From Candidatus Omnitrophota bacterium (GTDB taxonomy: Bacteria; Omnitrophota; Gorgyraeia; Zapsychrales; Zapsychraceae), in contig JADFYE010000002.1 in NCBI GenBank assembly GCA_015233195.1, positions 90,184 to 154,183 on the forward strand: 64,000 nt of DNA, read 5' to 3'. The notes beneath the pieces are model-generated. The model was not told where the DNA came from. It did no database searches and was given only the letters and a program-made list of their open reading frames with translations. A program made the position numbers and the translations under genes. Of this stretch, positions 38,501 to 53,648 are shown piece after piece; position 1 is the stretch's first letter; each line of letters begins with the position of its first letter.

Positions 38501-39590
38501 CTTTAGGCGCAATCCTCGCTAAATCCAGAAATTCTATTACTGGAGTAATATTTCCAACTACCCCGCCGGAAAAATATTTCCTTGGCAAAAATTGATTTGT
38601 AAGCGGATCTGGTTCTTCTTTTATGTAGTTGTATACGCCTTTTTTAAAAGCTTGGATGTATTGTTGATAAATTTGTTCCGGGTCTCCACTTAAATTTTTT
38701 GTTGATAACAAATTACCGATTTTATTTTGGTTAGAATAAACTTTATTAAAAATACTGTCTTTAATTTTCTTTTTGTACCACGTAGCTAAAATTAATGAAT
38801 AAAATACCTGACGTAATTGCGTAAAATTTTTACCTTCATTAACTTCTTTTTCCAGCGCGGGAATTATGATCTGCTTTAAAATTTCTTGATTGATCCCCTC
38901 ACTTTTTACCTTTAACCTTTCACCTTTTTTCTGTGATGCCGCATAATCTATCTCTGTCATCACCTTCAAATGATTTTCCAATACAAAGGCTGTTCCCCCG
39001 CTTTCATAAACCACCGCCTTCTCGGGAACTATCCAAACTTTATTAAATGTATCTACGGGAATATCTGTCGTTCCATATTTGGCTTGAGCCTGAGCATAAA
39101 CTTTTTGCCAAAATTCTTTGCCTAATTGGCTTTCAGGATAAATTAAACTTGCGGTAATTTGTTTTAACAAATAATCTTGCGCCAATAAATCGCGGCCCAT
39201 TTCAGTTTTACCAAATGCTTGCGGTACAATGCGGTCTTTTTCATAAGGAGAAAGATTGACCCAAAGGTCTTTTTCAGGAATAGTTAAAGAAGCAAGGAAA
39301 TATTTGATCAAACGATTGGCTTCTTGTCTAAATTCTTCTTGTGACATTTCAGCACCGTGATCGCGAAGCGATTTTACGGTGTCACCAGTATCTACAAAAA
39401 AATTAAACTTGAACGGATTTTGCGGGTCTAATTTAATGCCTTTTAGCACTGCAGGATTGAAAGCAGGACTTAGCGATACCATTTGCCCAGGTGCAGGCAG
39501 ACTAACTTCCTGAGCATAAATTGGATTTGACCCCAGAATGCTAGTGCAGACAAAACACAAAAGAATAAATAGAGAAAGTATCTTTTTCAT
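35517..39590 (-). CDS. Large secreted modular protein, paralog B: family N-module, GHKL ATPase-like domain, ~700-aa unknown region and 'GGID' C-terminal tail
   Basis: Signal peptide is MKKILSLFILLCFVCTSILGSNPIYAQ. The N-module is shared with paralogs A and C. The GHKL-type boxes are ELILNTYFYA (N box), MDHGKGI (G1) and GGTGVGLPLA (G2). The C-terminus is GGIDLDPAQMSMQV... Confidence 0.85.
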   Translation of the reverse strand: MKKILSLFILLCFVCTSILGSNPIYAQEVSLPAPGQMVSLSPAFNPAVLKGIKLDPQNPFKFNFFVDTGDTVKSLRDHGAEMSQEEFRQEANRLIKYFLASLTIPEKDLWVNLSPYEKDRIVPQAFGKTEMGRDLLAQDYLLKQITASLIYPESQLGKEFWQKVYAQAQAKYGTTDIPVDTFNKVWIVPEKAVVYESGGTAFVLENHLKVMTEIDYAASQKKGERLKVKSEGINQEILKQIIIPALEKEVNEGKNFTQLRQVFYSLILATWYKKKIKDSIFNKVYSNQNKIGNLLSTKNLSGDPEQIYQQYIQAFKKGVYNYIKEEPDPLTNQFLPRKYFSGGVVGNITPVIEFLDLARIAPKDMAALSKPLIEVVGDMDMMRSISNPSADGAMFSDGVIKELWSYLQMGDVEKSLALVEQLKRYTRISPPSEEQVALIKGTAFKGYWPHEVGGLEASVVASRILRPISHLISNNRKDNIKSAIIELILNTYFYADYGVILSRPIFDVGRMGVEIFIMDHGKGIQDIEAAFRGDLSEPHGLSAEPEGATAAGGTGVGLPLARATADQFDIESFPGKGTKIVLKFWSKFDSDNGEDAMAAYRAVKTDNAQLNNPDEYYKHFAEQWTQSTFFGNSGEEQKMFVASRQWFKELDPSKRNELFLILAKRFDFLKKDQDRWFYQSYWFKALAQAAMGWIRDGLVDTEALRQALPLFEPRALDINAYLRMEVVALHLAISFKIWAGMEPQSLEAQQIVVSVQNSLATCYLRDLRGVYDLLAMYFQKDWVPFAKTCVSDDWSVESLDLWEQEMGWQEKISEQVRNPNMPIYFSLPYLRDGRGDTVIAWGLLLKLKERYPSNPIFLITEDKITNRWLPLIEPAINGSLVAQTVQGIRILAYKVKDENFTATIINKPQELVTIEDGMAQRNDYVLIKYLPTLWKPKAAVERTINISDFDNLNFGKTFGDLQQDFFATGFMPGTLGVGVNGNAQVKAIRTLEERRELLDKLGVRREGLEHMKWAVAYLHSLKGLENYVQDLINANVSGPVVLFDLGAGQRGYSNRFPADPYKLPGVLVLGENSWIIEKDQKVIIISFWKNMPQELFQQLLVSSDFAPKIRGAGTMSFLFKQHKPFLIEREISFLDDSFKALEQRTRAMGLDLWEDKLAFEKPVEFNEHNASVLKAMDDAQPWNMASRLEVYTDHLLSGKEMPVMKKKIRHYVLHNLETIVFLEGKNVSSPPEYRQAIWAKVMDVLRTYPQELRILLEELSRNDLFYRNIIKDSQRQKIIEKLSDILQSPEKYLNEEKQSTGGIDLDPAQMSMQVKNGGEDFKFNFNGIEIDAAQVSGVTFTILQIMPVTNFLQIFEQ

Positions 39591-40395: not shown

Positions 40396-41526
40396 CTATT
40401 TCAATGTATAACTCGTGCTCCGTCCACCTGCGGCGTCTTTTCTGAGAATCCCTTTTTCCATAAGATCAAGAATATCTCTCAACGCCGTGTCTTGGGAGCA
40501 TTTTGTAATCTTTGCCCATTTAGTAGACGTGAGTTTACCCTCAAATCCATCAAACAATTTATTGACCATCATTTTCTGCCGTTCGTTGATCGCCCCGGAT
40601 GAATGCTTTTCCCAAAATTGTGCTTTTTTAAACACACCTGCTAATGTGCTTTCCGTTGATACAAGAGCCCGGTCGAGACAAGTCAAGAACCACTCAAGCC
40701 AAGTCGTAATATCAACGCTGGCACCTTTCTGCGTCTTCTCAAGCACATCATAATAAACACTTCGTTCCTTACGGATCTGGACAGACATGCTGTAAAAACG
40801 TTGCGCACTACCATCGGTCCGCGCCAATTGCATATCCGTGATCGCTCGTGCGATGCGCCCATTCCCATCCTCAAAAGGATGGATTGTTACAAACCATAAA
40901 TGCGCAATCGCCGCCTTTAAAACTGGATCAAAACCCTTCGAATCACTTGTGGTGAGCGAAGTCGAACCATTAAACCATGATAGATAACTCTTCATTTCTT
41001 GATTCAAACGATCTGCGCTAGGAGCTTCAAAATGGACACGTTCCCGCCCAACGGGTCCAGAAACGACTTGCATCGGACCATCTTTATCATCACGCCATAC
41101 ACCAATTTTTATTTTTCGCATTCCACTGCGTCCCCCAGGGAACATCGCGGCATGCCAACCGAATAAGCGGTCTTTTGTGAGTGGTTTTTTAAAATTTTGC
41201 GTAGCGTCAAGCATCATCTCAACCACCCCTTCCACATGACGGTCAGAACCAACAAGTCCAGCAATGTCCATCCCGAGTCTTCGCGCAATAGATGAACGAA
41301 CCTGACCAGGATCAAGCTTCTCACCTTCAATCTCGCTGCTTTTCAACACATCCAACGTAAGCGTCTGCAAGACCGCTTCCATGCGTAATGAAAAGCCTAA
41401 AGATTCCATCCGACCCATGAGTCGCCCTTGACGATTTCGTACTGTTCCAAGCTGCGCCGCGATCTTTTCGTGACTCCATGTAAATTGAGGCCAATTTTTA
41501 AGTTGATATATATATTTCATACTCAT
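40396..41526 (-). CDS. Fic-family protein (AMPylase-type) with N-terminal DUF4172-like region and C-terminal wHTH
   Basis: The canonical Fic motif is HPFEDGNGRIARA. The N-terminal block is LKNWPQFTW.... Confidence 0.9.
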   Translation of the reverse strand: MSMKYIYQLKNWPQFTWSHEKIAAQLGTVRNRQGRLMGRMESLGFSLRMEAVLQTLTLDVLKSSEIEGEKLDPGQVRSSIARRLGMDIAGLVGSDRHVEGVVEMMLDATQNFKKPLTKDRLFGWHAAMFPGGRSGMRKIKIGVWRDDKDGPMQVVSGPVGRERVHFEAPSADRLNQEMKSYLSWFNGSTSLTTSDSKGFDPVLKAAIAHLWFVTIHPFEDGNGRIARAITDMQLARTDGSAQRFYSMSVQIRKERSVYYDVLEKTQKGASVDITTWLEWFLTCLDRALVSTESTLAGVFKKAQFWEKHSSGAINERQKMMVNKLFDGFEGKLTSTKWAKITKCSQDTALRDILDLMEKGILRKDAAGGRSTSYTLK

Positions 41527-41605: not shown

Positions 41606-41972
41606 GCACAAGAGTATTTTATGATTTAATATGTTTCCGCAAGCGCGACTCACATTCAAACGTTATTATAATTCGTGACAGGCACTAATTAAGGGACACG
41701 ATTAAAATATCCCCTCCGGGGTAAACCAGTGACCTAATGTCTTCTGCCTTTGAATAACAACAAAATTTTTTTTTTTACCCCCCCACCCTGTGGGGAGGGG
41801 CAGGGGCAGGGGGGGGGGAATACAATAAAAACATATAAAAACATAGTCTACAGGACACGATTGCCCTTCGCTTTGCTCAGGGATTGGCTTTTCTCCTATT
41901 AAAAAATGAAAAAGCCAATAGAACGACGGCTTCGCCGTTGCACGCTCAGTCACGCGCTCACGCCTTCAAATT

Positions 41973-42003
41973 AAAAAAGGCCACCTAAAAGGTGACCTTT
42001 TTT
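41973..42003 (-). terminator. Probable ancestral tRNA-fMet terminator, now next to the partial tRNA copy (attL side)
   Basis: Stem aggccacc (41978-41985) pairs with ggtgacct (41991-41998) with one mismatch. On the minus strand it is followed by a T-run (A-run 41973-41978). It lies directly 3' of the duplicated tRNA 3' segment. Confidence 0.6.
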
Positions 42004-42006
42004 AAT

Positions 42007-42062
42007 TTGGTTGCGGGGACACGATTTGAACGTGTGACCCCCAGGTTATGAGCCTGGTGAGC
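42007..42062 (-). repeat. attL: 55-56-bp duplicate of the 3' part of tRNA-fMet
   Basis: tggttgcggggacacgatttgaacgtgtgacccccaggttatgagcctggtgagc is identical to 53572-53626. The two copies diverge immediately afterwards (ccca... versus tacc...). Confidence 0.9.
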
Positions 42063-42135
42063 CCACCCACAACTTATTGATAAATATAAACTTATGAAAA
42101 TTAAAAATCAAATGTGACGGATTTGTGACAATCAC

Positions 42136-42465
42136 CTATTCAGCCAATTTACAGCATGCTTCACTAAAACTTATAATGTCCTTTTCAAGAGCAATATCTT
42201 TTTCTAAATTAAAACAATTGCAAATATGTTCGCCTACATCATGCAAATAACAAATGACTTCCTGTAGAATTAAAAAAGTATATTTTTTAAAAATATTTGC
42301 GTCGTTAATATTTACCGTAAAATGAGTCATGTGAGAAAAATTACATAAAAACGCATAGTCACTTTTATATTTTTCAAGCAACCCAACATCTTCGGCGCGT
42401 TTTTCTACAAAAACACCGCCTAATTTATGTTTCATAGCACTAATGTTGGCTGTTCGGTCGTTCAA
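42136..42465 (-). CDS. Hypothetical protein, downstream partner of the DUF4238-like/SEC-C gene
   Basis: A 109-aa ORF starting 19 nt after the stop of the 823-aa gene, on the same strand. No motif recognised. Confidence 0.5.
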   Translation of the reverse strand: MNDRTANISAMKHKLGGVFVEKRAEDVGLLEKYKSDYAFLCNFSHMTHFTVNINDANIFKKYTFLILQEVICYLHDVGEHICNCFNLEKDIALEKDIISFSEACCKLAE

Positions 42466-42484
42466 TGATCAACGACAATTAAAA

Positions 42485-44956
42485 TTACTGATTAGAGAAA
42501 GATTCTATATATAAAGAAAGCGGCAAAGATTTTAAATATTTTTCGTGTCCAGCGTGTGCCAATAACAAGCGATAAACTGTGCTAGCGCTATGACCTGATG
42601 GAGCAATCTTGGCATTTAGCCTATACTTTTTCTGAATTACTTTAAAAGTCTCTGGGCAAACTTCATTTTTCCTTTTAATAAACTTTTCAATTGATGCACT
42701 CATATTTTTTCTGGCAAAATTCATTTCCTGTATTAAATTATCAATTTGTGATTTATTTGTTGGCGTCTCCTTTTGAACAGTGCACCAAATGTGTTTTAGC
42801 GCAGTCTTAATATGCTGTAACTCTCCTTCTTTTAATGTTAATAAAAGATCCTTCTGATCAGGAAACTCAACAAAATCAATTTCCAAATTCGTCATATATT
42901 TTTCAATAGCTTGCCATTCAGAATGTCCATCTCCATAATAATTATTAACAGATTCACAAATTTCAAACCATCTGTGTTGATGATAAGTTAGTATAAACGA
43001 ACCTGTTGATTGAGCTAAAAACAAACCCAATTCAAGATTGGGACTTAAATGCGCAATGTGCATCTGACAAAATTCTTCATCACTTTCATGAAGCTGTAAT
43101 GAAGCCAACGGATCTTGCTCTCTATTTATCTTAATTTCCACAAGAGTTTTTTCAAGTTGCTCATCGTTGATTTCAGGCATATGATGCTTAATAAATAATC
43201 TTATACGCTCATCAGGCAAATTAAACATACCTCTTATCACGTCTTCCATAGCCAACTTTTTCATTGACAGCATTACCTTCTCATCAATTTTCATTGTTTT
43301 ACACCGGTTTTGTGACGCTTCCATAATTTGTTGTCTTAATTCAAAGTCAAAATTCATTGGATCAGGAATCATATTGACCTTGCCAATTTCTATTAATGGC
43401 ATAAATGAAATAAAAAATAAAATGTTCTTTAATGTTTCTTGTCTAAACGTGGAAGGATTATTTATTGGATTGTATTCTTTAGGAAGAACATTTGCATTAG
43501 CAAACGGATTAATAATTAATATCTCATCTGCATATAAAGAAAATGCCGCAACATCCTTATAAGCAACACGCGGATCCAATAAACCTGAATAAAGCGCACG
43601 TGATATTTTTTTATCTGGCTTTGGCAATAAAGCCATTAAATCTGTTTCAGTTGGCCAAAGACTCGCGAAAACTTTATGAATTTCTATTATTTTATCATCA
43701 CTAAACTCTCGTCGAATTTGTGTCCAATCCTTTTTATCTAACTCAAGAATTTTTGTAAGAATCCGAAAAAACATTAAATTCCGTTCTCGGATACTTAATT
43801 CTGTCCATGACGACCTTTCCTCCATTGTTTTATCATAGCAACATCTCTTATATTTTTTAGCGCTTCCGCAAGGACAAGGGTCATTTACACCGATCTTGCC
43901 TTCTTTAGGTTCTTTTTTAAAAAAATTTGCTTCTGGGTGAGTTCTGCCATACTCATCGCTATAAAAATATGTGCCATCTTTATTTTGGCCATAAACTTCC
44001 CCTCCATAATTATAAAGCTTGTCTTTAGGTGGCAACAACACCTTACCTATCTCCGTCCAAGAGCTTTGAATAAATTTCTCAGGGTAAAGCCATTCTTTAT
44101 TTTCAGCAGCTAAAAATTGTTTTGATCGTAGCTTAATCATAAGATTTATTTTGGCAACTTCGTTGTCTTGTAACTCCCTTTTACAAATTATATTATCCAT
44201 TCTCCCTAAAGTATTTCGGAACGACTTCGCGTTAGCTCTATATATTTTAGGATCAGATAAATCAGGGTTACGGGCATAATCTAAGTTAGTAAGAATCAAA
44301 CAACGGGCACTATCTAGAGGGAAAACTGTTTGGGTTGCTTTCATTTCGATTCGAGGATCGTTAGGATATATACATTCTTCACTATTAGGAGGACAAGCAT
44401 AATTATAAGTTGTAATGGGATGATCAGAAACTATAAATTTTATTTTTGATTTTCTTGCATACACTATCTCTTTAACAGACTCAAACCAAAGTGTGCAATG
44501 CAATTGCCTAATTTTCTGCATTTCAAATAACAACTGATTATGTGTCAAATTTGGATACTTTGACTTCAGCCAAGCAAGCCCTTTCGGAGTACGAATTTTC
44601 TGTATATCAATGTATTCAAAAAACTTCTCAAAATTATTATGTAAATTTTCAAATTCCTGTTCAGCCATTGCACTCACAGCATTAAGACCTACATTATCAA
44701 TTTTCCCAAAAAGATAACGTTCAATGTCATCATTTAAAAATCCGTAATAATGTGTCGTATATAAATCTTTTTGGCAGAAACATTGACTAGGGCTAAAAGG
44801 ATAATTGATTGCTTTATCTTGTTTCTTGTGCCCATTGGGTAATTCTATTAGTTGTGGGCATAGATTTAAGTAATAAAAAGTGCTTTTTGAAGAAGATAAA
44901 AATCTCTTCTGATACCACTTTGGAACATAATGATTTCTACGTGTAATATCAATCAT
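42485..44956 (-). CDS. DUF4238-like N-terminal domain, SEC-C zinc motif and ~440-aa uncharacterised C-terminal region
   Basis: The N-terminus RRNHYVPKWYQKRFL and the block FIVSDHPITTY match my recollection of the DUF4238 signature. The SEC-C motif DPCPCGSAKKYKRCC is encoded at 43835-43885. Confidence 0.7.
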   Translation of the reverse strand: MIDITRRNHYVPKWYQKRFLSSSKSTFYYLNLCPQLIELPNGHKKQDKAINYPFSPSQCFCQKDLYTTHYYGFLNDDIERYLFGKIDNVGLNAVSAMAEQEFENLHNNFEKFFEYIDIQKIRTPKGLAWLKSKYPNLTHNQLLFEMQKIRQLHCTLWFESVKEIVYARKSKIKFIVSDHPITTYNYACPPNSEECIYPNDPRIEMKATQTVFPLDSARCLILTNLDYARNPDLSDPKIYRANAKSFRNTLGRMDNIICKRELQDNEVAKINLMIKLRSKQFLAAENKEWLYPEKFIQSSWTEIGKVLLPPKDKLYNYGGEVYGQNKDGTYFYSDEYGRTHPEANFFKKEPKEGKIGVNDPCPCGSAKKYKRCCYDKTMEERSSWTELSIRERNLMFFRILTKILELDKKDWTQIRREFSDDKIIEIHKVFASLWPTETDLMALLPKPDKKISRALYSGLLDPRVAYKDVAAFSLYADEILIINPFANANVLPKEYNPINNPSTFRQETLKNILFFISFMPLIEIGKVNMIPDPMNFDFELRQQIMEASQNRCKTMKIDEKVMLSMKKLAMEDVIRGMFNLPDERIRLFIKHHMPEINDEQLEKTLVEIKINREQDPLASLQLHESDEEFCQMHIAHLSPNLELGLFLAQSTGSFILTYHQHRWFEICESVNNYYGDGHSEWQAIEKYMTNLEIDFVEFPDQKDLLLTLKEGELQHIKTALKHIWCTVQKETPTNKSQIDNLIQEMNFARKNMSASIEKFIKRKNEVCPETFKVIQKKYRLNAKIAPSGHSASTVYRLLLAHAGHEKYLKSLPLSLYIESFSNQ

Positions 44957-45117
44957 ATTATAAGTAATTATTTACTAAATTCGTTATATATGCAATTATG
45001 ATTTTCAACTAAAGAAAATATTATTTAGCCATTGAATAAACGAACATTTAATCAACCCCTTAGAATAAGCAATTTCCCTGTAAAAAAACTTGTACCCTTT
45101 ATTCAACCCTTACATCT

Positions 45118-45772
45118 TTAGACACCCGCAAGAACTATCCACTTTAAGAATAACATCACGTGCTTTAAGAAATACCTCAGAAAGAAAACATCAAACTCCG
45201 GCATATACATATCCGCGTTTTCGTTTATACACTTAGTATAAAATTCGTAATTCTCATAACATTCTTGAGGTAGACCACCAAAATCAATAATTTCATGTAA
45301 TAGCTCATTGAGATCTTCTCGTCGAATATTTCAACATTATATGGCGAAATAGATGTGATAATATTATGGTTAATTACTCGCTTATTTTTAAAATAAAAAA
45401 TTATAAATACTTCGACATAAAGATTTTGGAAAGTTGAAAAAACTTCGGCAAGCTCTTGAGATGAGGTTATAGCCAATCCCTTCGGATTAAAGCTTAACCC
45501 TTTTTCAACGAGAAACTTTTTTGCGACGTCCGATAGGGAACCCTCGGTTCCACTATCCCCTCGGATATTTTCAATGTGCTCGTCTGCTTTTTGCTGATAT
45601 TCTTTTTCTTTGATTTCATACGCGACTTCCGTTTCCTTAACAGTATCGTGAATATCTAATTTTTTTTCTTCAATAAAGCGTTAAACGATTTCGTGTCTCG
45701 TAAGAACGGAGCTAATGGGCTGATAAGGTAAGAAACTTTTGATTTTTTCTTCTGCTTTTTTATGACTTTCAT
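45118..45772 (-). pseudogene. Disrupted ORF (at least two frameshifts, one in an A8 run)
   Basis: After a GGGAGA RBS, the ATG at 45772 gives MKVIKKQKKKSKVSYLISPL...ALLKKKN*, which stops inside gaagaaaaaaaattag. The next frame continues LDIHDTVKETEVAYEIKEKEYQQ...FKNKRVINHNIITS. A further shift gives EDLNELLHEIIDFGGLPQECYENYEF... Confidence 0.45.
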
Positions 45773-45923
45773 CTATATTCTCCCAAAAAACTTTTTGTTA
45801 TTCTGACAATTATATTATCATGGCTTTCTGTCTTGTCAATAGCCTCCCTACCGACGCTGTCTGATATTTATTCACACCCTTGTTTTCGGTTTTCTTCAGG
45901 GGTAAAGTTCTTTGAAAAGCTAA

Positions 45924-46070
45924 CTAAGTTTTCTTGTCTTGTGTGTTAGGGTTTTTCCCAGTCTTCTTCGCCGAAAGTATAGCCTTCTTCATTGCTCGGT
46001 TCATCCTGATCCGCTGTTCGTATAATCTCTGCTCTTCTGGATTCGGGTATTTTTGATTGATCGCTGTCAT
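45924..46070 (-). CDS. 48-aa truncated paralog of the 126-aa protein at 47867..48247
   Basis: MTAINQKYPNPEEQRLYEQRIRMNRAMKKAILSAKKTGKNPNTQDKKT aligns with MEEPRFQNPKQQKLYDLQIKLNRAMNKAILSAKMTGHKI. The upstream leader is also duplicated. It is below the ORF-track size cut-off. Confidence 0.5.
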   Translation of the reverse strand: MTAINQKYPNPEEQRLYEQRIRMNRAMKKAILSAKKTGKNPNTQDKKT

Positions 46071-46165
46071 TTTTTATTTCCTCCACTACCGGTCTTACTT
46101 ATTTATGCGACTCTATTAATAACTTTACTATTTAATGCTGTCTGGGAGTTAGCTTTATTCCTCAT
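45958..46165. repeat. Diverged ~200-bp duplication, copy 1 (copy 2 at ~48141..48340)
   Basis: ccagtcttcttcgccgaaagtatagccttcttcattgctcggttca aligns with ccagtcatcttcgctgaaagtatagccttgttcattgctcggttca. Similarity continues through the start codon and a leader containing ctattaata. Boundaries are approximate. Confidence 0.7.
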
Positions 46166-46218
46166 GGTTTCCCTCAGCTTAGCTAATTCCTTTGCAATGG
46201 AACGCATACGCATATGAT

Positions 46219-46350
46219 CCTGATCTAGGATATTATTGGGATATACCAATGTCATATCAATTCGATGCAAATGCCGTACCCGAGCCGACCACGATATTGC
46301 TATTTAGCGCGGGATTAGGTTTATTATTTAGAAAAAAGCCCTGTTCATAA
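46219..46350 (+). pseudogene. C-terminal remnant of a PEP-CTERM protein inside the island
   Basis: The plus-strand frame reads ...YYWDIPMSYQFDANAVPEPTTILLFSAGLGLLFRKKPCS*. That gives a PEP motif (from 46276), a TM helix and a basic tail. An in-frame stop just upstream leaves no N-terminal body. Confidence 0.6.
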
Positions 46351-46387
46351 GAACGAGGCTTCAACTTTTCTGCGCATGGTAGATAAG

Positions 46388-46606
46388 CTATTTAACTTCT
46401 TCGAATCTTCGCTCCCCGCATTTGGTGCAGGCAATTTTAATATGTGACCTACCGTATGCACTCAGCATTACAAACTTATGCCCGAATATCTCACACCTAA
46501 TTTTTATTAAGACCTCCGACCACTTCTTTCGAGATGATTTTAATGATACGCAGTTTTCTAATAAGTCCCGCGAACTCTTCCGAAGACATTTCATCTCTTG
46601 CCTCAT
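46388..46606 (-). CDS. Small zinc-ribbon-like protein
   Basis: 72 aa. Cysteine and histidine pairs occur in CEIFGHKF...CTKCGERRF. It lies directly downstream of the HExxH gene. Confidence 0.4.
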   Translation of the reverse strand: MRQEMKCLRKSSRDLLENCVSLKSSRKKWSEVLIKIRCEIFGHKFVMLSAYGRSHIKIACTKCGERRFEEVK

Positions 46607-46716
46607 CCAATATCTTTATTTTTGTTTCATTGTCTTGCGCCGACATAACGCCTTTTATTATAGGATCAAAAATTTTAAGATTATCTCCAGCACGTGCGCT
46701 ATTTGCCTTACCACCA

Positions 46717-47604
46717 CTAACGCTGATTCTCTAATTCAACATAACAGTCGGTATTATATTGAGCTATTCCGCGGCAATTACCACAAACGACATCTTGACA
46801 ACCTTTGTCCAATTTGATGCGTAATCTTTGAAAACAAAATGGGCATAAAACAACGGCACTCTCGAAATCCTTATCTTTTAATAGCTGACCTTTCCTATGC
46901 ATATAACTTACAACACCGTCGCGAAAACAGTCCCTTCCCTCCCCAAACAATAATTTCATTATTTCTTCATTTTTAATCGATTTGATTTGTGCATACAACG
47001 CCAAAGCATAACCCAATTCATCATTCGTTAAATAAGGCTTAATATTCTTTTTACTTATCCTCTCCTCATTTCCAACAACTTCCGATTTAGTACAAGGGGT
47101 TAACCCATTCAATAAAAAAATTCCCATTCCCAGATAAATTGTCATTAAATCCGTATAACGTTCATTATCAATCCCGTTATAAATCTCCAAATTATTGTCT
47201 TTTAAAAAAACATGTGAAATTTCATGCGACAGGCAAGCAGCTATTTGTCGTTTATCTTCCATAAAAAAATTATCAATCTCTATAAAATAATCGGTCCCGT
47301 TTCTTTGGACTACTGCCGCGCTTGACAAATTTCCTGAAAACCCAACAATAACTTGCCGCATATTGATATTCAAATTAGCCGCAATCCGACGTGTTAATTC
47401 CATACTATAAATTACACCGTCACCAAAATCTATCCCTTCATCAGTAATGAATGACTGACGTCGCAAAATCGGATGTTTAATTTTACTAATACCATGAAAA
47501 TTTTCTTCTATCCATGACCTTTTTGCCGCGACGTTAAAATATATTTTCGTCTTTTTTTCTTTTTTTTTAAAACCATTAAACATATTGTTCCTTTGTAAGA
47601 TCAA
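46717..47604 (-). CDS. Putative HExxH zinc metallopeptidase with C-terminal zinc ribbon
   Basis: The HExxH motif is CLSHEISHVFL, in an ImmA/IrrE-like context. The C-terminal four-cysteine ribbon is CPFCFQRL...VVCGNCRG. The start may be the internal MFNGF at 47583. Confidence 0.55.
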   Translation of the reverse strand: MILQRNNMFNGFKKKEKKTKIYFNVAAKRSWIEENFHGISKIKHPILRRQSFITDEGIDFGDGVIYSMELTRRIAANLNINMRQVIVGFSGNLSSAAVVQRNGTDYFIEIDNFFMEDKRQIAACLSHEISHVFLKDNNLEIYNGIDNERYTDLMTIYLGMGIFLLNGLTPCTKSEVVGNEERISKKNIKPYLTNDELGYALALYAQIKSIKNEEIMKLLFGEGRDCFRDGVVSYMHRKGQLLKDKDFESAVVLCPFCFQRLRIKLDKGCQDVVCGNCRGIAQYNTDCYVELENQR

Positions 47605-47866
47605 AAACTAAATAAAGAACCATCTTTTAATCTGTTAGAGGGAATCCTGCAACCATCTACCATCTTTATCCCCATTCTTAAATTATAACTCTTTATGCTT
47701 ACGCCAAAAATCATCCTCATCATTAATCTCTAAAACCTTCTTACCATCAGAATCTAATAAGACTAAGTTCCTTTTCTTTAGATAAAACATTCACAACATC
47801 ACTATCCGAAACAAAAAATGGAAAGGCGATTAAAAATAATATAGTAAACAAATACTTTCTCCTGCC

Positions 47867-48247
47867 TTAACCCTCATCATTTAAACAAAAATCAGCCAAA
47901 ATTTCCCCAGTATTCTTATCAATAACCACACAATTTGATGAGCAAAGAGACATGTTACCAAGTATTTCCGGATATATAACACACCAAGCGGCTTTTCCCT
48001 CCCATCGTTTCGCTAAATTATCAAAACCATATATTCGCTGACGATTGAAATTTACCTCATCAACTGTATAAACAAATACCGCGTTTTTAAGCGCATGCCC
48101 TAAAGCTATTTCTCGCGCACGATCTTTTGTAATTTTATGTCCAGTCATCTTCGCTGAAAGTATAGCCTTGTTCATTGCTCGGTTCAGCTTGATTTGCAGA
48201 TCGTATAATTTCTGCTGCTTCGGGTTTTGAAACCTCGGTTCTTCCAT
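47867..48247 (-). CDS. Hypothetical 126-aa protein (full-length copy of the duplicated module)
   Basis: The ORF has an RBS-like GGGGGAAATAA upstream. Its N-terminus is paralogous to the 45924..46070 peptide. Confidence 0.5.
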   Translation of the reverse strand: MEEPRFQNPKQQKLYDLQIKLNRAMNKAILSAKMTGHKITKDRAREIALGHALKNAVFVYTVDEVNFNRQRIYGFDNLAKRWEGKAAWCVIYPEILGNMSLCSSNCVVIDKNTGEILADFCLNDEG

Positions 48248-48340
48248 TATTTATTTCCCCCGGTGATGGTCTTTTTTCCCTCCACCACGCTATTAATAGC
48301 TTAACTATTTCGCACTGTCCAATAGTTAAACTTTGGCTTC
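48141..48340. repeat. Diverged ~200-bp duplication, copy 2
   Basis: See copy 1 at 45958..46165. This copy covers the 5' coding end and the leader of the 126-aa gene. Confidence 0.7.
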
Positions 48341-48506
48341 TATCAGCATAGTTATTTACCTTTGTTTATTTCAACAATTATAATATAAATAAGCGACAAC
48401 GTGATGTCGTAAACATTCGAAATTCATCATCGCACAAGACCTACCTTTGACCTTAACTCCTTTGCGGTTTGGGTATCTCCAAAAATATCAGCAACCTGCG
48501 CCTGAC

Positions 48507-49046
48507 TTAACATTCCGTGTAATCATATATTGCTAATGCCTGGCTTGTCTCTAAATTAATAATTAGGCATTTTTGATTAAAATGAATAGAAAAAAAAGAA
48601 CTTTTAGGTGAAACCACAACGAGCGTTGTCTCTTTTTTTAAAATATTTTTTAAACGATCCATACTAACAACTTGATTATCGACTTTTCGAAAATCAAATT
48701 CCTCATTAGGTAAAATCCTTACCCATTCATCAAAATCAGTAAGTAGTTTATCTATTTCCCAAGCACTAATATGCGGTAACTTATTAATAATAAAATTTAT
48801 AGATTTAAGACTAATACTGCTTACAACGAGCGAGTATCCATAATAAAATAGAACAGAAACAACAAGTCCAGATAAAATAACTGCTACAAAAGCACCTATT
48901 GGTATAACTTTTACCCAATAATCTCCAAACTGAAACTCAATAAGTCGTGCTAAATAATCATATAGACTCAAACAAACGATCATGACTGAAAACCACAACA
49001 CCATACGAAAAATAAAACTAAAAAATTTTTTCATCAATTTATGCAT
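48507..49046 (-). CDS. Membrane protein (two N-terminal TM helices plus a soluble C-terminal domain)
   Basis: 179 aa. The hydrophobic segments are FSFIFRMVLWFSVMIVCLSLY and VIPIGAFVAVILSGLVVSVLFYY. Confidence 0.5.
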   Translation of the reverse strand: MHKLMKKFFSFIFRMVLWFSVMIVCLSLYDYLARLIEFQFGDYWVKVIPIGAFVAVILSGLVVSVLFYYGYSLVVSSISLKSINFIINKLPHISAWEIDKLLTDFDEWVRILPNEEFDFRKVDNQVVSMDRLKNILKKETTLVVVSPKSSFFSIHFNQKCLIINLETSQALAIYDYTEC

Positions 49047-49126
49047 AATATTCTCCTTAATTAAATAACTATATCACCCAAGCCGTTTGGTGTAAAGAAT
49101 GGCGCGCTTCCTTTATAATTCAAAAC

Positions 49127-49348
49127 ATGGATAATGAAAGAGAGATAGTAAGTATATTTTCTAAACACCTGCGGAAATTGAGAATTAAAAATAATTTAAC
49201 TCAAGAAAAATTAGCCGAATTAGCGGATATTTCTTATAAAAATATCCAATACCTTGAATCAAAAAATCCAACCTGTCCGAACCTCATAACACTTAACAAA
49301 ATTGCTAACGCCTTCAAAATTTCTCTCTCGAAACTATTAAATTTCTAA
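49127..49348 (+). CDS. XRE-family helix-turn-helix regulator
   Basis: LRKLRIKNNLTQEKLAELADISYKNIQYLESK is a classic HTH_3 pattern. It is paralogous to the protein at 50929..51138. Confidence 0.8.
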   Translation: MDNEREIVSIFSKHLRKLRIKNNLTQEKLAELADISYKNIQYLESKNPTCPNLITLNKIANAFKISLSKLLNF

Positions 49349-49714
49349 CAACGCTGATTCAACTACCTTACTTCCATAACGACCTAAAATTTTATTAATC
49401 TCTGCTTCAGACTTATTAGGAAGTTTAAATCTCAAATCCTCCTCACTCTTTATCTCTTCATAGCCCATATTTTTTAATATTATTTTAGTGTTTCCATCCG
49501 ATAAATCTAATATATCCATCCATTTCCCTGCACTGACGACATATACTGCACTCACATTACGAACTTCCCCATTCGGACATCTAAAGACTAGTCGGTTAGC
49601 TTTAAAGCAATTCTCAACCGTCCTGTATCCATTAAGAAGAATGGCGTATTCTATTTTTTCAGAGATACCAACTTCAGATTCTAATTTTTTTAATCTACTT
49701 TGATAATTCTTCAT
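49337..49714 (-). CDS. Hypothetical protein
   Basis: A 125-aa ORF that converges on and overlaps the XRE gene by 12 nt. No motif recognised. Confidence 0.4.
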   Translation of the reverse strand: MKNYQSRLKKLESEVGISEKIEYAILLNGYRTVENCFKANRLVFRCPNGEVRNVSAVYVVSAGKWMDILDLSDGNTKIILKNMGYEEIKSEEDLRFKLPNKSEAEINKILGRYGSKVVESALLEI

Positions 49715-49800
49715 TCCTATTGCTCCCTCAAAAGAAATTTATTGTACTATTATTCACACAAAAAAAGACCTTCAGGTTCTATACCTGATTTTAAAGAGTC

Positions 49801-50862
49801 TTAACCTACTGTAATCATTTCACTTAAAGCATCAGGTGCATTTGTTTGTGCCAATTTTGTGCCATTTAGCTGGTCCAAACAATTAACGGCAAGTGTTTTA
49901 TGGTAACAACTTAGATGAGCATAGCGTAAAGTCATTTTGATGTCTTTATGGCCTAAAAGTTCTCTGACCGTATTTAAATCGATTCCTGCCATTACTAATT
50001 GCGAAGCAAATGTGTGCCGCAAGTCATGAAAACGAAAATTTGTAATCTCCGCGCTTTCCAAAGCGGAATAAAATGATTTCTTTATATCCACAAACGCATT
50101 CCCGGTTTTACCAACAAAAATAAAGGGGCTATCCGGCATTTTTCTCACTCGAAACAATATGCTTTTAACCGTCTCATTCATTGGAATTTCCCGCATTTCA
50201 TTATTTTTTGTTCTTAGCAAAAATATAATTCCCCGGTTCACGTCCACGTCGTGCCATTTAAGATTAAAAATTTCTCCCTTTCTCATGCCAGTATTTAAGG
50301 CAAACTCCACAATATCTTTTAAATAACCCTCGCATTGTTCCAATAAGCGCTTTATTTCCTCTTTTTCCAAATATCGGGTTCTTTGATTATTCAATTTATA
50401 AAACTTAACCTTTGCCACCGGATTGATGCCATTGTATTTTTCCCATTCGATCGCCTTATTAAACATGGTCTTTAAGGTACACAACACTTTATTAACGCTT
50501 GATTTACTTACTTTTTTAAGATGATCTATTTTTAAACGTTCAACATCAATAACTTTTATTTCATGCAAAAAGCGATCACCAAAATATTCATTTAAATGCT
50601 CCATATTATGTTTTTCAGATTTACCCCAAGTAGGACGGTTTGGCTTCAGATGGAGATCAATATATTCTGCGGAAAAGTCTTTAAAATTAACTTTTGAATG
50701 ATTTCTAATATCTAAAAATTTGTTCTCAGCAATATCAACCAACCTTTTTTTAAGGATAGTTTCTGCAATGGCTTTATTGGGGGCAACAACCTCCCTTATT
50801 CTTCGTCCATTACACGAAAAATCAATACCCCATTTATTTCCTCTTTTAAATACTTTTGCCAT
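49801..50862 (-). CDS. Tyrosine-type site-specific integrase
   Basis: I prefer the start at 50862 (MAKVFKRGNKWGIDF...). The catalytic region has TGMRKGEI (Arg), HDLRHTFAS (HxxR) and LGHKDIKMTLRYAHL (the Tyr). Confidence 0.9.
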   Translation of the reverse strand: MAKVFKRGNKWGIDFSCNGRRIREVVAPNKAIAETILKKRLVDIAENKFLDIRNHSKVNFKDFSAEYIDLHLKPNRPTWGKSEKHNMEHLNEYFGDRFLHEIKVIDVERLKIDHLKKVSKSSVNKVLCTLKTMFNKAIEWEKYNGINPVAKVKFYKLNNQRTRYLEKEEIKRLLEQCEGYLKDIVEFALNTGMRKGEIFNLKWHDVDVNRGIIFLLRTKNNEMREIPMNETVKSILFRVRKMPDSPFIFVGKTGNAFVDIKKSFYSALESAEITNFRFHDLRHTFASQLVMAGIDLNTVRELLGHKDIKMTLRYAHLSCYHKTLAVNCLDQLNGTKLAQTNAPDALSEMITVG

Positions 50863-50928
50863 AGCTATAATATACACCCAACAATCATTGGGTGTCAATA
50901 TTTATATACCTATTTATAATAGGGTGTT

Positions 50929-51138
50929 ATGAAAACTAAAGAAACATTTAGTAACAACGTTAAAAAATATCGCCAAAAGAACAACCTGACTCAAGAAGAG
51001 CTCTCAGAGATTTCAGGCGTCGCTTACAAATACATTCAAAAAATCGAAGGTAAAACTACACCCAACGTAGGAATTGATTTAGTTGAAAAATTAGCTAAAG
51101 CATTAAAAACAACATCCTCAAAACTCCTTGAATCTTAA
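50929..51138 (+). CDS. XRE-family HTH regulator, divergent from the integrase
   Basis: The HTH_3 pattern is VKKYRQKNNLTQEELSEISGVAYKYIQKIEGK. Confidence 0.8.
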   Translation: MKTKETFSNNVKKYRQKNNLTQEELSEISGVAYKYIQKIEGKTTPNVGIDLVEKLAKALKTTSSKLLES

Positions 51139-51329
51139 CTTATACTGTCAACCTTTACCGCTTTCAACCAAACCATAATTTCTTTCCGATTAAATTTCAC
51201 TAACCGTCCTATTTTATAATAAGGAAATTTTCTCGTATGCACCCAAGCATAAACCGTGCTTTCCTTTACACCTAGAAAGCTGGCTAATTCTTTTATCCCT
51301 AAATAACGATCATCCGTAAAACTGTTCAT
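51135..51329 (-). CDS. Excisionase-family (MerR/AlpA-like) DNA-binding protein
   Basis: YLGIKELASFLGVKESTVYAWVHTRKFPYYKIGRLVKFNRKEI matches the helix-turn-helix excisionase pattern. Confidence 0.75.
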   Translation of the reverse strand: MNSFTDDRYLGIKELASFLGVKESTVYAWVHTRKFPYYKIGRLVKFNRKEIMVWLKAVKVDSIS

Positions 51330-51709
51330 TTTCGCCCGTTGTCCTGTAACATAACTTTTTCTTCAATTTTATCTAACCGCTCTTCAATTTTTTCTATCTC
51401 GTGCGATCTAAAAGCAAAATTTAAAATATCTTTATAAACTAACCTTTTAAGCTCCGGACCTTCCTCGTCCATAAGTTCAATTAATCCTTCCACCGCTTTG
51501 ATCATAGCGTATTTCAAACGCTGCATACTAGCATTAATGACTTCTTCTCGTTGTCGTTTAAGTTCATTTTTAAAAACCTCATCTTTAAGCCAATAATATA
51601 TCGTGGTTTTGCTTATTCCTGTTTTCCGGCTTGCCTCCTCAATAGATGCTGAAGAAATGATATTGGCAATCGCAAGATACTGATTATTTTTTAATTTTAG
51701 TTTATCCAT
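51326..51709 (-). CDS. HTH protein resembling a phage small-terminase / regulator N-terminal domain
   Basis: The HTH SIEEASRKTGISKTTIYYWLKDEVFKNELKRQREE is followed by a helical tail. It is translationally coupled (ATGA overlap) to the excisionase gene. The function is inferred only from pattern resemblance. Confidence 0.4.
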   Translation of the reverse strand: MDKLKLKNNQYLAIANIISSASIEEASRKTGISKTTIYYWLKDEVFKNELKRQREEVINASMQRLKYAMIKAVEGLIELMDEEGPELKRLVYKDILNFAFRSHEIEKIEERLDKIEEKVMLQDNGRK

Positions 51710-51801
51710 ACTTAAAGCCCCTTTATGTGTTCAAAATCGTTCACTTTAGTGCAATAATGATAATTTGTTCACTGCCTTTTTATTTTTTAAAAATACTTAA
51801 C

Positions 51802-51984
51802 TCAAGTCTGTAATTTTTGATTAAAACGACCTTTCATATTGCCAATCCCTTTCCTGTTTGGATTCTTACCCATTCTGAAAGGATAAATTGGACATCCCGG
51901 TATTAAACAATCACGAATTTCACTTGGTTGACCATTAGAACACTCTAAACATTTTTCTCTGATTGATCTTATTGGTGTATTCAT
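51802..51984 (-). CDS. Small zinc-finger protein
   Basis: 60 aa with the four-cysteine pattern CLECSNGQPSEIRDCLIPGCPIYPFRMG. Confidence 0.5.
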   Translation of the reverse strand: MNTPIRSIREKCLECSNGQPSEIRDCLIPGCPIYPFRMGKNPNRKGIGNMKGRFNQKLQT

Positions 51985-52107
51985 CGCCTACCTTAATTTC
52001 CTTTTATATACATAAACATGATTTTCTTAGCTTTAGCTCTATTCTTTATCCATGCCAAGCATTATCTATATCTCAGCTTTTATCCTTATCCAAGCTTGAT
52101 CTAAAAA

Positions 52108-52187
52108 CCCGAGCCTCCGTATGCTTGTGTATGTCTCAGTTGGTAGAATAGTAAGACCAGTGCTGAGAAGAGTTCCGGAGGCCCGGG
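52108..52187 (-). ncRNA. Structured RNA element / complex terminator downstream of the 101-aa gene
   Basis: The outer 12-bp stem pairs cccgagcctccg (52108-52119) with cggaggcccggg (52176-52187), with one mismatch. A nested 6-bp stem (tctcag/ctgaga) is visible on the minus strand, where the structure is followed by a T-run. Confidence 0.35.
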
Positions 52188-52192
52188 AAAAA

Positions 52193-52498
52193 TTATAAAA
52201 TTTTATCAATTTCATATTTTGTTTGGTTTCTTTTACCAGTTCTTTTAATAAGAAGATAATCCCCTATTGAATAAACGCACATTTGTTTTGCTAATTCCCT
52301 TGATGTTCTGTCCCAAAACAACTCTTTTCCTTCAACCTCTAATTTGTAACGTACACATTCCACCTTTGTACCCTGAAAAGTTGTTTGCACCTTTTCAGCA
52401 CCAAGCAATCTAACTGATTTTTCTTCACCATCCGGTAAATCAAAAAACTGCGACTTGCTATCAACAAAACTGTTTAAAACATTTTTTAAATCTGACAT
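52193..52498 (-). CDS. Hypothetical protein
   Basis: A 101-aa ORF with a GAGGAGG RBS upstream. No motif recognised. Confidence 0.5.
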   Translation of the reverse strand: MSDLKNVLNSFVDSKSQFFDLPDGEEKSVRLLGAEKVQTTFQGTKVECVRYKLEVEGKELFWDRTSRELAKQMCVYSIGDYLLIKRTGKRNQTKYEIDKIL

Positions 52499-52616
52499 TT
52501 GAACCTCCTCATTTAAAATATTAAAAAAAAATCCTACGGATGTACTCCATAGGATCTAACTATAATATAAATTTAAACTATTTCCACGACGGATTAGTGC
52601 AAATAAGCCTTATATG

Positions 52617-53399
52617 CTATTTGCCAGAAACTTCCTCGATCATTTTTCTACACGATGCATAGTCTCTCTTTACTTTTTGTTTTCCATATTCAGGATTAGC
52701 AACAAAGTCTTTTGGGTAAAACTTAGCAGCTATTTGGGCCCAGCCCCATTTCTTCTTTTCTCGATAATCAAAAATTTTCAAATTACATTCATATCTATCA
52801 AATCTTTTTCTATTGTCTTTTTTAATCTTTGGGCATTCAACAGCATGCCAGATCTTCATAAGGTCTGTCATGTCTTGAATAATTCTTTCCAAAGTGCCAT
52901 TGACCCTTACCGCAAATTTTAAACATTGGATTTGTGGATCATTCACAATATTTAATTTGCCATCTCCGTGTGTTAATTCAAAAACACATTTTTCGTTTCT
53001 CTCAAAATCACGAACTATACTTTCACAAAAATACGCTGGATATTTATCACAATAAGCATCATTCAACTTATAACCAACTTCCACCATCGTCTTAAATTCT
53101 TTTTCTAGATGACCTTTTATGTTCATTGACACAGACTTATATAATTTGAAAAAAGGAATTAATGGATTAACAGGTATACGCAACCCAAATTTCTTTTTAA
53201 AAATTGCACAATGTTTTAACCTATAATTTTGCACTACATTTAATATATTGCTTTTCAGATTATTTAAACCGTTTTGATAAAGCTCAAAATCACCTTTATA
53301 TTCTTCATTCCTTCGCAAAAACTCCCATCTAAAACCATAAATCAAATATCTTTCTTCTTGTGCAGTAGTCAGCTCATTTATCTTTTTTTTTGCTTTCAC
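52617..53399 (-). CDS. Hypothetical protein with a 'WEFLRRN' (DUF6499-like) N-terminal motif
   Basis: YLIYGFRWEFLRRNEEYKGDFE resembles the W-E-F-L-R-R-N-x-x-Y motif I recall from mobile-element-associated proteins. This is the first gene inside attR. Confidence 0.45.
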   Translation of the reverse strand: MKAKKKINELTTAQEERYLIYGFRWEFLRRNEEYKGDFELYQNGLNNLKSNILNVVQNYRLKHCAIFKKKFGLRIPVNPLIPFFKLYKSVSMNIKGHLEKEFKTMVEVGYKLNDAYCDKYPAYFCESIVRDFERNEKCVFELTHGDGKLNIVNDPQIQCLKFAVRVNGTLERIIQDMTDLMKIWHAVECPKIKKDNRKRFDRYECNLKIFDYREKKKWGWAQIAAKFYPKDFVANPEYGKQKVKRDYASCRKMIEEVSGK

Positions 53400-53531
53400 T
53401 TTTTTCTCCTAAAAAGTTAAAGGTACAAGTAATCCATGTGCCGGATTTGTGCCAACTTTGTGTCAAAACTGGTCAAAATTCATGATAATTGGTAGTAATT
53501 GTAGCTTTTTAGAAAGGATTTGGCAAGAACC

Positions 53532-53562
53532 AAAAAACCCGACTATCTCGTCGATAATCGGG
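53532..53562 (-). terminator. Island-encoded terminator following the reconstituted tRNA-fMet
   Basis: Stem cccgactat (53538-53546) pairs with ataatcggg (53554-53562) with one mismatch. The A6 run at 53532-53537 gives a U-tract on the minus strand. It lies 10 nt from the tRNA 3' end. Confidence 0.6.
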
Positions 53563-53570
53563 CTTTTATA

Positions 53571-53626
53571 TTGGTTGCGGGGACACGATTTGAACGTGTG
53601 ACCCCCAGGTTATGAGCCTGGTGAGC
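53571..53626 (-). repeat. attR: the 3' 55-56 nt of the intact tRNA-fMet, identical to attL
   Basis: Exact match to 42007-42062. Confidence 0.9.
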
Positions 53627-53648
53627 TACCTGGCTGCTCTACCCCGCG
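53572..53648 (-). tRNA. Initiator tRNA-fMet (anticodon CAT)
   Basis: The reverse complement is CGCGGGGTAGAGCAGCCAGGTAGCTCACCAGGCTCATAACCTGGGGGTCACACGTTCAAATCGTGTCCCCGCAACCA. It is 77 nt with an encoded CCA. It has the C1xA72 mismatch and the CTCATAA anticodon loop. The sequence is close to my recollection of E. coli tRNA-fMet. Confidence 0.9.

Follow-up and report, generated by a model that had tools for sequence, protein, structure and literature searches.

The split-tRNA principle has been applied to thousands of islands in Islander (Hudson, Lau & Williams 2015, PMC4383910), where a 3′ fragment was present in 3760 of the 3919 islands, the attP was centred on the anticodon in 2083, and tRNA genes (tDNAs) with a CAT anticodon were sorted into an initiator class. 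We describe here a locus of this kind in a Candidatus Omnitrophota bacterium (assembly GCA_015233195.1, contig JADFYE010000002.1), of which a stretch of 64,000 nucleotides (positions 90,184 to 154,183 of the forward strand) was analysed; this stretch is called the window, and coordinates are counted from its first letter. An earlier sequence-only reading had proposed that the window carries an integrative island in the gene for initiator tRNA (tRNA-fMet). The proposal is supported, every structural element having been found, and we consider it highly probable that the interval 42063-53570 is a small integrative element that entered the initiator tRNA-Met gene by integrase-mediated site-specific recombination. 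As in the Islander islands, a tyrosine integrase would have split a tRNA gene that island DNA restored, the ends are marked by the rebuilt gene and by a displaced 3′ fragment in direct orientation, and the block of identity extends from the 3′ end back into the anticodon arm.

The window holds one tRNA gene, a tRNA-Met(CAT) at 53572..53648 on the minus strand (detected by ARAGORN; Rfam RF00005, 59.4 bits). Two marks of an initiator, the C1xA72 mismatch and the A11:U24 pair, can be read from its sequence, CGCGGGGTAGAGC...GCTC...CCCCGCAACCA. The bacterial-initiator mark of three consecutive G:C pairs (29-31:39-41) is not present, since the anticodon stem is CCAGG/CCTGG, with A29:U41 and two G:C pairs; other Omnitrophota tRNA-fMet genes are alike in this respect, so that A29:U41 looks like a lineage trait. 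A repeat search of the window showed that 42007-42062 and 53571-53626 form a direct repeat of 56 bp without a mismatch, as the sequence-only reading had described (55-56 bp), and that these blocks lie within a longer direct repeat (42000-42062 and 53564-53626) of 63 nt and 97% identity, the two mismatches falling at 42005-42006. The 56-bp block comprises linear tRNA positions 23-77 and one base past the CCA. It had been assigned to the 3′ part of tRNA-fMet, from the CCA end through the anticodon loop; the 3′ part is correct, but the block runs slightly further, through the 5′ strand of the anticodon stem and into the D-stem. The intact tRNA gene is found at one end of the island only. Its 5′ 22 nt are host DNA, and from position 23 onward it lies in the first repeat copy (53571..53626, minus strand), the identity block of attL. 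The other end carries the second copy (42007..42062, minus strand), the identity block of attR, which is a displaced tRNA-fMet 3′ fragment without the 5′ part. The island between the copies measures 11,508 bp. Together with adjacent island bases (42011-42071, minus strand), the displaced fragment scored 30.4 bits with the Rfam tRNA model, for which the gathering threshold is 29, and it could be mistaken for a second tRNA gene in automatic annotation.

The interval had also been said to contain a tyrosine integrase and an excisionase, and both were confirmed. The integrase gene (int) encodes 353 residues at 49801..50862 on the minus strand, the true start being the ATG at 50862. The protein matched PF00589 (E 7.8e-36) and PF24624 (Int_N; E 7.3e-8), and the R-K-H-R-H-Y set (R193, K218, H278, R281, H304 and Y313) is present and invariant in an alignment of 28 sequences; it thus has the PF00589 and Int_N domains of a tDNA-island integrase and is of neither the Xer nor the integron type. 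The candidate excisionase or recombination directionality factor (xis; 51135..51329, minus strand) matched PF12728 (HTH_17, a helix-turn-helix (HTH) family) with 54.2 bits at a cutoff of 27, and is 52-61% identical to the gene adjoining int in five comparison loci, L084-L088. (Comparison loci of relatives carry L-numbers; L035, L039 and L087 are CAZFNI010000008.1, JACKFI010000001.1 and JBGAJA010000003.1, respectively.) It lies upstream of int, with only an XRE-family HTH regulator gene between them (50929..51138, plus strand; PF01381, E 1.4e-10), which is divergent from int and has the same position and orientation in L084-L087. Within the 66-bp intergenic region between int and the XRE gene, divergent promoter-like sites overlap a palindrome, ACACCCAACAATCATTGGGTGT (50874..50895, no strand assigned), that may serve as an operator.

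The integrase, the FtsB-like protein and the 260-residue protein of the island are each 100% identical to proteins of an NCBI Candidatus Omnitrophica metagenome-assembled genome. Thousands of integrase homologues were found, the closest outside the source genome being 67% identical. Among distant relatives (30-50% identity), a tRNA gene of one kind or another mostly lies 50-150 nt after int. A metagenome scan returned relatives of at most 49% identity among the matches listed, and thus informs the general association with tRNA genes and not the tRNA-fMet clade. Judging from these sequences, the integrase belongs to a classic tRNA-targeting family whose closest clade is specific for tRNA-fMet. 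A viral origin was considered and found no support, the integrase relatives in IMG/VR being only distant (best 43%). The most informative relatives are those with 62-64% integrase identity. L084, L085 and L086, which come from independent ENA, JGI and Logan assemblies, encode integrases 64% identical to that of the window and carry a 6.2-kb element in the same place as in the window, after eno-ftsB-tRNA-fMet. In L084/L085 the two repeats are 87% identical, the identity is limited to CTCATAACCTGAAGGCC, and the T-stems differ although each is self-complementary; this divergence outside CTCATAACCTGAAGGCC argues that a tRNA 3′ half arrived with the element and that the exchange took place in or near the anticodon loop. 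In L087 (integrase 62% identical; junctions at 4390-4580 and 13010-13105), the element lies inside a GDSL-lipase gene, the open reading frame (ORF) of which is split, and it therefore occupies a secondary site. At the first junction the sequence is host|ATAACCTGGGGGTCGCAGGTTCAAATCCTGCCCCCGCAACCA, behind which stands a terminator hairpin, and at the second it is ...CACTCATAACCTG|host; the lipase site and the tRNA core have only ATAACCTG in common. Given that the L087 element lies outside a tRNA gene and still has the tRNA-fMet 3′ half and the hairpin, both are element-borne, and no other locus shows so clearly that these two parts belong to the element.

The sequence-only reading had further held that the intact tRNA is followed by a terminator supplied by the island and that the displaced copy retains what looks like the original one, and both points gained support. 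The intrinsic terminator of the rebuilt gene (53533..53567, minus strand) has a 15-pair stem and a T-run (−20.6 kcal/mol, z −4.8). Its loop motif, CGACGAG, is common to related elements, and the island-side sequence after the tRNA aligns with L084/L085 over this terminator and a paired TGGCACA motif; the hairpin is kept in position, and partly in sequence, in L084/L085 and L087. The inverted repeat after the displaced fragment (41962..42006, minus strand; −20.6 kcal/mol, z −5.8) is a hairpin of host type, the presumed ancestral terminator. When downstream stretches of 34 Omnitrophota relatives were folded and read manually, an A-tract, hairpin and T-tract directly followed tRNA-fMet in about 30; an automated test for a hairpin plus T-run was positive in only 15 of the 34 stretches, since the T-run is taken up by pairing with the A-tract once the sequence is folded. 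The hairpin of L039 and that at 41962-42006 have flanks in common (AATTAAA...TTAATTT), which fits the latter as the host's original terminator. The assignment of one terminator to the island and the other to the host would hold for the window, and the related elements support it. Between the host-type terminator and the next gene (41700-41960), we saw no convincing ORF; this segment holds a long C-run/G-run hairpin-like tract (CCCCCCCCCCTGCCCCTGCCCCTCCCC...GGGTGGGGGGG and an A-run), and a GC-rich part of it weakly resembles the sequence after the L039 tRNA terminator.

Both arms of the element carry a repeated motif that may bind the integrase. The motif TGKCACAAAWNYGKCACA occurred four times in the window, against 0.18 matches expected. 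Two overlapping copies of TGGCACAAAT-N-YGGCACA (53437..53465, minus strand), putative arm-type sites, lie in the tRNA-proximal arm, at the same position as in L084-L088; one copy (49847..49864, minus strand) lies inside the 3′ end of int, at the same place in all integrase genes of the family; and one (42113..42130, minus strand) lies about 60 nt inside the distal repeat, L087 having a matching third copy before its distal junction. The distal attachment (att) unit was considered as a relic of an integrase 3′ end and was rejected as such, the overall similarity being weak and only motif and spacing solid. The integrase gene itself is internal: 2.7 kb separate it from the tRNA end, and the distal repeat is 7.7 kb away. 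Twelve nucleotides after its stop codon lies an anticodon-arm-like hairpin, TCAGGTATAGAACCTGAAGGTC, with a T-run (49767..49788, minus strand), which we call a pseudo-core. It is identical at 18 of 22 positions to the tRNA-fMet anticodon arm of the phylum, while its fold alone is weak (z −1.3), and it occupies the place of the true core in L084, whose int reading frame terminates within the anticodon-loop copy. Hairpins of a similar kind are also present behind int in L087 and L088. The three-motif layout of the window returns in L087, where cargo separates int from the distal junction; in L088, too, cargo comes after int. The decayed internal hairpin and the further distal arm motif make the island look composite: beside the tRNA gene stands a 3.8-kb module for recombination and regulation, the 7.7 kb beyond it are partly decayed cargo, and the far end is formed by the additional arm motif together with the true core. 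The likeliest origin would be that a second element was added by accretion or that cargo was captured at the att site.

Site-specific accretion and cis-mobilisable elements (CIMEs) have been described for ICESt3-type elements of streptococci. One could envisage, accordingly, that two related elements stand in succession at the same tRNA gene, the proximal one (53570-49760) keeping int and xis, the distal one (49760-42063) being an int-less, cis-mobilisable remnant, and the middle att site having decayed to the hairpin behind int. The anticodon-arm-like hairpin stands exactly where L084 has its true core, an additional arm motif precedes the distal core by about 60 nt, and a second XRE gene is found in the cargo, all of which speak for such an array, as does a longer contig of L088 type, in which more genes lie upstream of the L088 tRNA-fMet 3′ fragment, suggesting a tandem array there; moreover, Islander recorded 125 such arrays (PMC4383910). 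However, the T-arm and the acceptor part are wholly missing from the middle site, in contrast to the outer repeats, which are identical at 56 of 56 positions; the repeat search showed no complete tRNA fragment inside the island, and apart from a weak DNA similarity nothing in the distal part can be recognised as left over from an integrase. In addition, the three-motif layout with a non-tRNA loop behind int recurs in L087 and L088, the integrases of which are 62-63% identical to that of the window, and recurrence in such diverged elements points to an old, stable architecture and not to a recent tandem insertion. We therefore regard a tandem array as possible but doubtful. The same recurrence could be carried further: the window element, L087 and L088 might form a clade of 6-11 kb tRNA-fMet-specific Omnitrophota elements with a fixed two-site design, in which an inactivated core-like hairpin stands behind int and the true core, with its own arm motif, stands beyond a variable cargo bay, a dedicated platform for cargo capture and no chance tandem array. 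We propose this as a speculation that is unlikely to be right; if it were true, the element would supply the 3′ half of what may be the sole initiator tRNA gene, and its imprecise loss would be costly for the host.

On our preferred account, which is the textbook one (PMC4383910), integration by the integrase would have proceeded as follows. The attP of the circular element would consist of a tRNA copy, from the D-stem and anticodon arm to the CCA, followed by the element's own terminator. Strand exchange would most likely occur in or next to the anticodon loop, and we predict the crossover to lie within CTCATAACCTG. The 5′ part of the host tRNA gene would thereby be joined to the 3′ sequence and terminator supplied by the element, which would keep an essential gene working, while the host's own 3′ part and terminator would be displaced by 11.5 kb. 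Arm-type sites (paired TGGCACA) on both arms would position the integrase, the XRE gene, divergent from int, would encode a repressor that keeps the element silent, and the integrase together with the HTH_17 excisionase would reverse the integration.

Several observations weigh against this interpretation. The integrase gene is internal and not beside an att site, unlike that of L084, and the unit at the int 3′ end and the distal att unit showed weak overall similarity (alignment score z about 2 against shuffled sequences). No transfer, replication or packaging genes were identified among the island ORFs with Pfam, PHROG or NCBIfam, and the cargo is decayed, so that the element may have lost the ability to move as a whole. 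The empty site was sought in relatives, as the sequence-only reading had suggested. The order eno-ftsB-tRNA-fMet is kept in about 35 Omnitrophota species; in up to 10 kb of sequence downstream of it, most of these species have no integrase and none has a second copy of the tRNA 3′ end. Empty sites were thus seen in distant species of the phylum, which speaks for integration. The nearest relatives are distant, however (best enolase 79% among GTDB species representatives, best FtsB 62%), which places the observed empty sites outside the strains of the source species: no empty site was found in a close relative, the nearest enolase being only 79% identical. The predicted junction of the empty site, searched for as an exact match in JGI metagenomes, gave no match at all. 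The 1357-residue HATPase protein at 35517-39590 was considered as a synteny anchor and discarded, since its homologues stand in different contexts in L020 and L034.

The window also comes from a contig of a metagenome-assembled genome (MAG). The chromosomal site might therefore be empty, the 11.5 kb being a free circle, or DNA of another population, threaded through the 56-bp core by the assembler. The exactness of the repeat would fit such an artefact, as would the contig breaks that the MAGs of several relatives show at tRNA-fMet or shortly behind it; and 56 bp is close to commonly used assembly k-mer sizes. Nevertheless, related elements are found integrated in the independent ENA, JGI and Logan assemblies, where the repeats are not identical and could not cause threading, and both GC skew and gene orientation are continuous across the island. 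Even if the junctions were artefactual, the element and its attP matching tRNA-fMet would be real, and only the integrated state would be in question. We consider an assembly artefact very improbable, and return to integration into the initiator tRNA gene as the preferred explanation.

Four further genes belong to the 3.8-kb module, all on the minus strand. The 60-residue cysteine-rich, zinc-ribbon-like protein (51802..51984) is kept in related elements: L084-L086 and L088 each have, immediately before xis, an ORF whose product is 50-58% identical to it. The 127-residue HTH protein (51326..51709) fell below the cutoff of the Pfam HTH families and matched PHROG families of the terminase small subunit (E 2.5e-8 to 2.5e-7), mainly over the HTH; this terminase-like HTH gives the sole, weak hint at a route of cell-to-cell transfer. 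A 101-residue protein (52193..52498) had no match in Pfam, PHROG or NCBIfam. The 260-residue protein (52617..53399) has an N-terminal Trans_reg_dom, for which its own match is weak (PF20109, E 2.6e-4), but among 35 remote homologues 26 matched PF20109 and 14 matched PF10074, a DNA-binding domain of RovC/DUF2285 type. It belongs to a small family carrying both kinds of domain and is probably a transcription regulator; a single-sequence AlphaFold2 model of it was unusable (predicted local distance difference test score, pLDDT, 45). The 101-, 127- and 260-residue proteins were tried as counterparts of the SpoVG-like, 128-residue and 293-residue proteins that stand at the same positions in L084, and were rejected as such because BLASTP showed no similarity. 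The backbone conserved in sequence accordingly consists of the 60-residue protein, xis, int and the att arms only, the XRE gene being conserved by position and orientation.

The cargo region (42136..49714, minus strand) comprises, from the integrase side, a 125-residue ORF (49337-49714, minus strand), the second XRE HTH gene (49127-49348, plus strand), ORFs of 179 (48507-49046), 126 (47867-48247) and 295 residues (46717-47604, with a HEISH motif), a stretch of 1.76 kb without an ORF longer than 83 residues (44957-46716), an 823-residue protein with DUF4238 and SEC-C (42485-44956) and, as the last ORF of the island, a fragment-like one of 109 residues (42136-42465), the ORFs from 179 residues onward lying on the minus strand. 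A defence function of the cargo was considered and rejected, since both the PADLOC and the PDB matches of the 823-residue protein rest only on the SEC-C motif. Neither phage structural (capsid, tail, portal), large terminase or lysis genes (PHROGs and Pfam scans) nor relaxase, coupling protein or type IV secretion families (Pfam and NCBIfam scans) were found among the island ORFs. As for the traits of phage satellites (phage-inducible chromosomal islands, PICI, or P4-like), the island has an integrase, an XRE gene and xis, its ORFs include no identified replication gene, and the match to the small-terminase PHROG lies mainly over the HTH.

By eye, the sequence-only reading had judged the cargo more AT-rich and richer in pseudogenes than the flanks. 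The first judgement was correct, and the difference is real but modest: the GC content of the island is 33.4% (0.334), compared with 37.5% (0.375) for the rest of the window and 0.351 for the lowest window of the same size elsewhere, and the GC content at third codon positions (GC3) is 0.275 in island genes compared with 0.331 (Mann-Whitney p 0.002). The second could be upheld in part. ORFs of at least 100 residues cover 68% of the island, compared with 91% elsewhere in the window. A truncated paralogue of the gene at 47867-48247 lies at 45903..46052 (minus strand); it is a pseudogene with an in-frame stop (tblastn E 4e-11, 46% identity over 50 residues; DNA repeat 87%). The fragment-like ORF at 42136-42465 aligned only to the C-terminal part of a 239-residue protein of L035 (17841-18560; 26% identity, E 6e-12). 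The L035 gene lies directly upstream of a Fic gene, and the order in the window is alike: fragment, att copy, terminator, Fic. Low coverage also occurs outside the island, at 1-2200, the first 4 kb of the window having only 54% in ORFs of at least 100 residues compared with more than 90% for most of the rest.

These signs of decay raise the question whether the island, integrated as described, is now fixed, immobile and decaying. The truncated paralogue, the 1.76-kb ORF-poor stretch, the fragment-like terminal ORF and the low coverage by long ORFs would all agree with this. On the other hand, the catalytic residues of the integrase and the excisionase ORF are intact, the displaced repeat has remained identical to the tRNA gene at 56 of 56 positions though it lies outside a functional gene, and the arm motifs are intact on both arms. 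The identity of the displaced copy, the catalytic residues and the arm motifs argue for recent or continuing activity, and the decayed cargo argues for some age; from these sequence features, the element may still be mobile today, and a dead island seems to us rather unlikely.

The surroundings of tRNA-fMet in the phylum are themselves variable. Several contigs of related MAGs, L001, L024, L032 and L047 among them, stop at the tRNA-fMet gene or no more than a few hundred bases beyond it (L032 stops precisely with the tRNA 3′ end, and L001 27 nt after ftsB), which suggests repeated or variable DNA at this point in those populations. In L035 (11656-11963), the anticodon loop of the tRNA-fMet gene behind eno-ftsB is interrupted by about 210 inserted nucleotides, a group I intron by Rfam (RF00028, 64.6 bits, threshold 50), and ARAGORN missed this gene; loci with ftsB in which ARAGORN found no tRNA (L005, L006, L034 and others) may resemble it. 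In L039 (12051-12350), the tRNA-fMet gene and a host-type terminator are followed some 170 nt later by an isolated fragment of element type, the tRNA 3′ end CCCCGCAACCA with a terminator of CGTCGAG loop; two arm motifs lie further downstream, where no integrase of the family was detected, and the locus gives the impression of an element that has been rearranged or has decayed at this very site. A small ORF with a GIY-YIG domain lies between ftsB and tRNA-fMet in L084 (4314-4664). Just outside the island of the window, a DUF4172 and Fic protein (40396-41526, minus strand) matched the SoFic model of PADLOC (E 6e-43), and its gene has the highest GC content of the neighbourhood (0.455); in the 8 kb after the tRNA-fMet gene of L035, genes of the RnlA-like, RNase HII, GmrSD and Fic types were found. 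With a Fic gene beside the island and defence-type genes in L035, the site looks like a hot spot for defence genes.

For Omnitrophota, a phylum seen almost exclusively through metagenomes, the locus provides a mobile element whose limits are precisely defined, together with its att sites. Its integrase, the predicted attP and the tRNA-fMet attB could seed genetic tools for these bacteria or help to trace gene flow among them, and the region downstream of tRNA-fMet is marked as a recurrent hot spot for insertion and defence genes in the phylum. As a tRNA-targeting island it is clean but ordinary, and adds nothing conceptual to how such islands work.

Compared with the Islander islands, the element differs in its host, an uncultured Omnitrophota MAG, in its target, the initiator tRNA, and in the internal position of its integrase gene. 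With the heterobivalent integrases of lambda type, the integrase shares the N-terminal Int_N domain (PF24624) joined to a catalytic domain, and the motifs that recur at set distances to either side of the core, as well as the small HTH excisionase gene upstream of int, likewise recall lambda-type systems; unlike these, the window element has no phage genes, binding to its motifs is a prediction, and the coding sequence of int contains one of the motif copies. Tandem or secondary-site integration has been described for SGI1 (PMC2297512), and the L087 relative resembles SGI1 in using a secondary site that has only a short core in common with the primary site. Systems that evolve by accretion and CIME formation are a parallel to the composite island, with its internal att-like relic and its int-less distal part, although neither conjugation nor mobilisation genes were found in the window element and its internal site is a decayed hairpin instead of a full att copy. 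Finally, diverged relatives have the layout seen in the window as well, so that a stable design seems more likely than a recent accretion.

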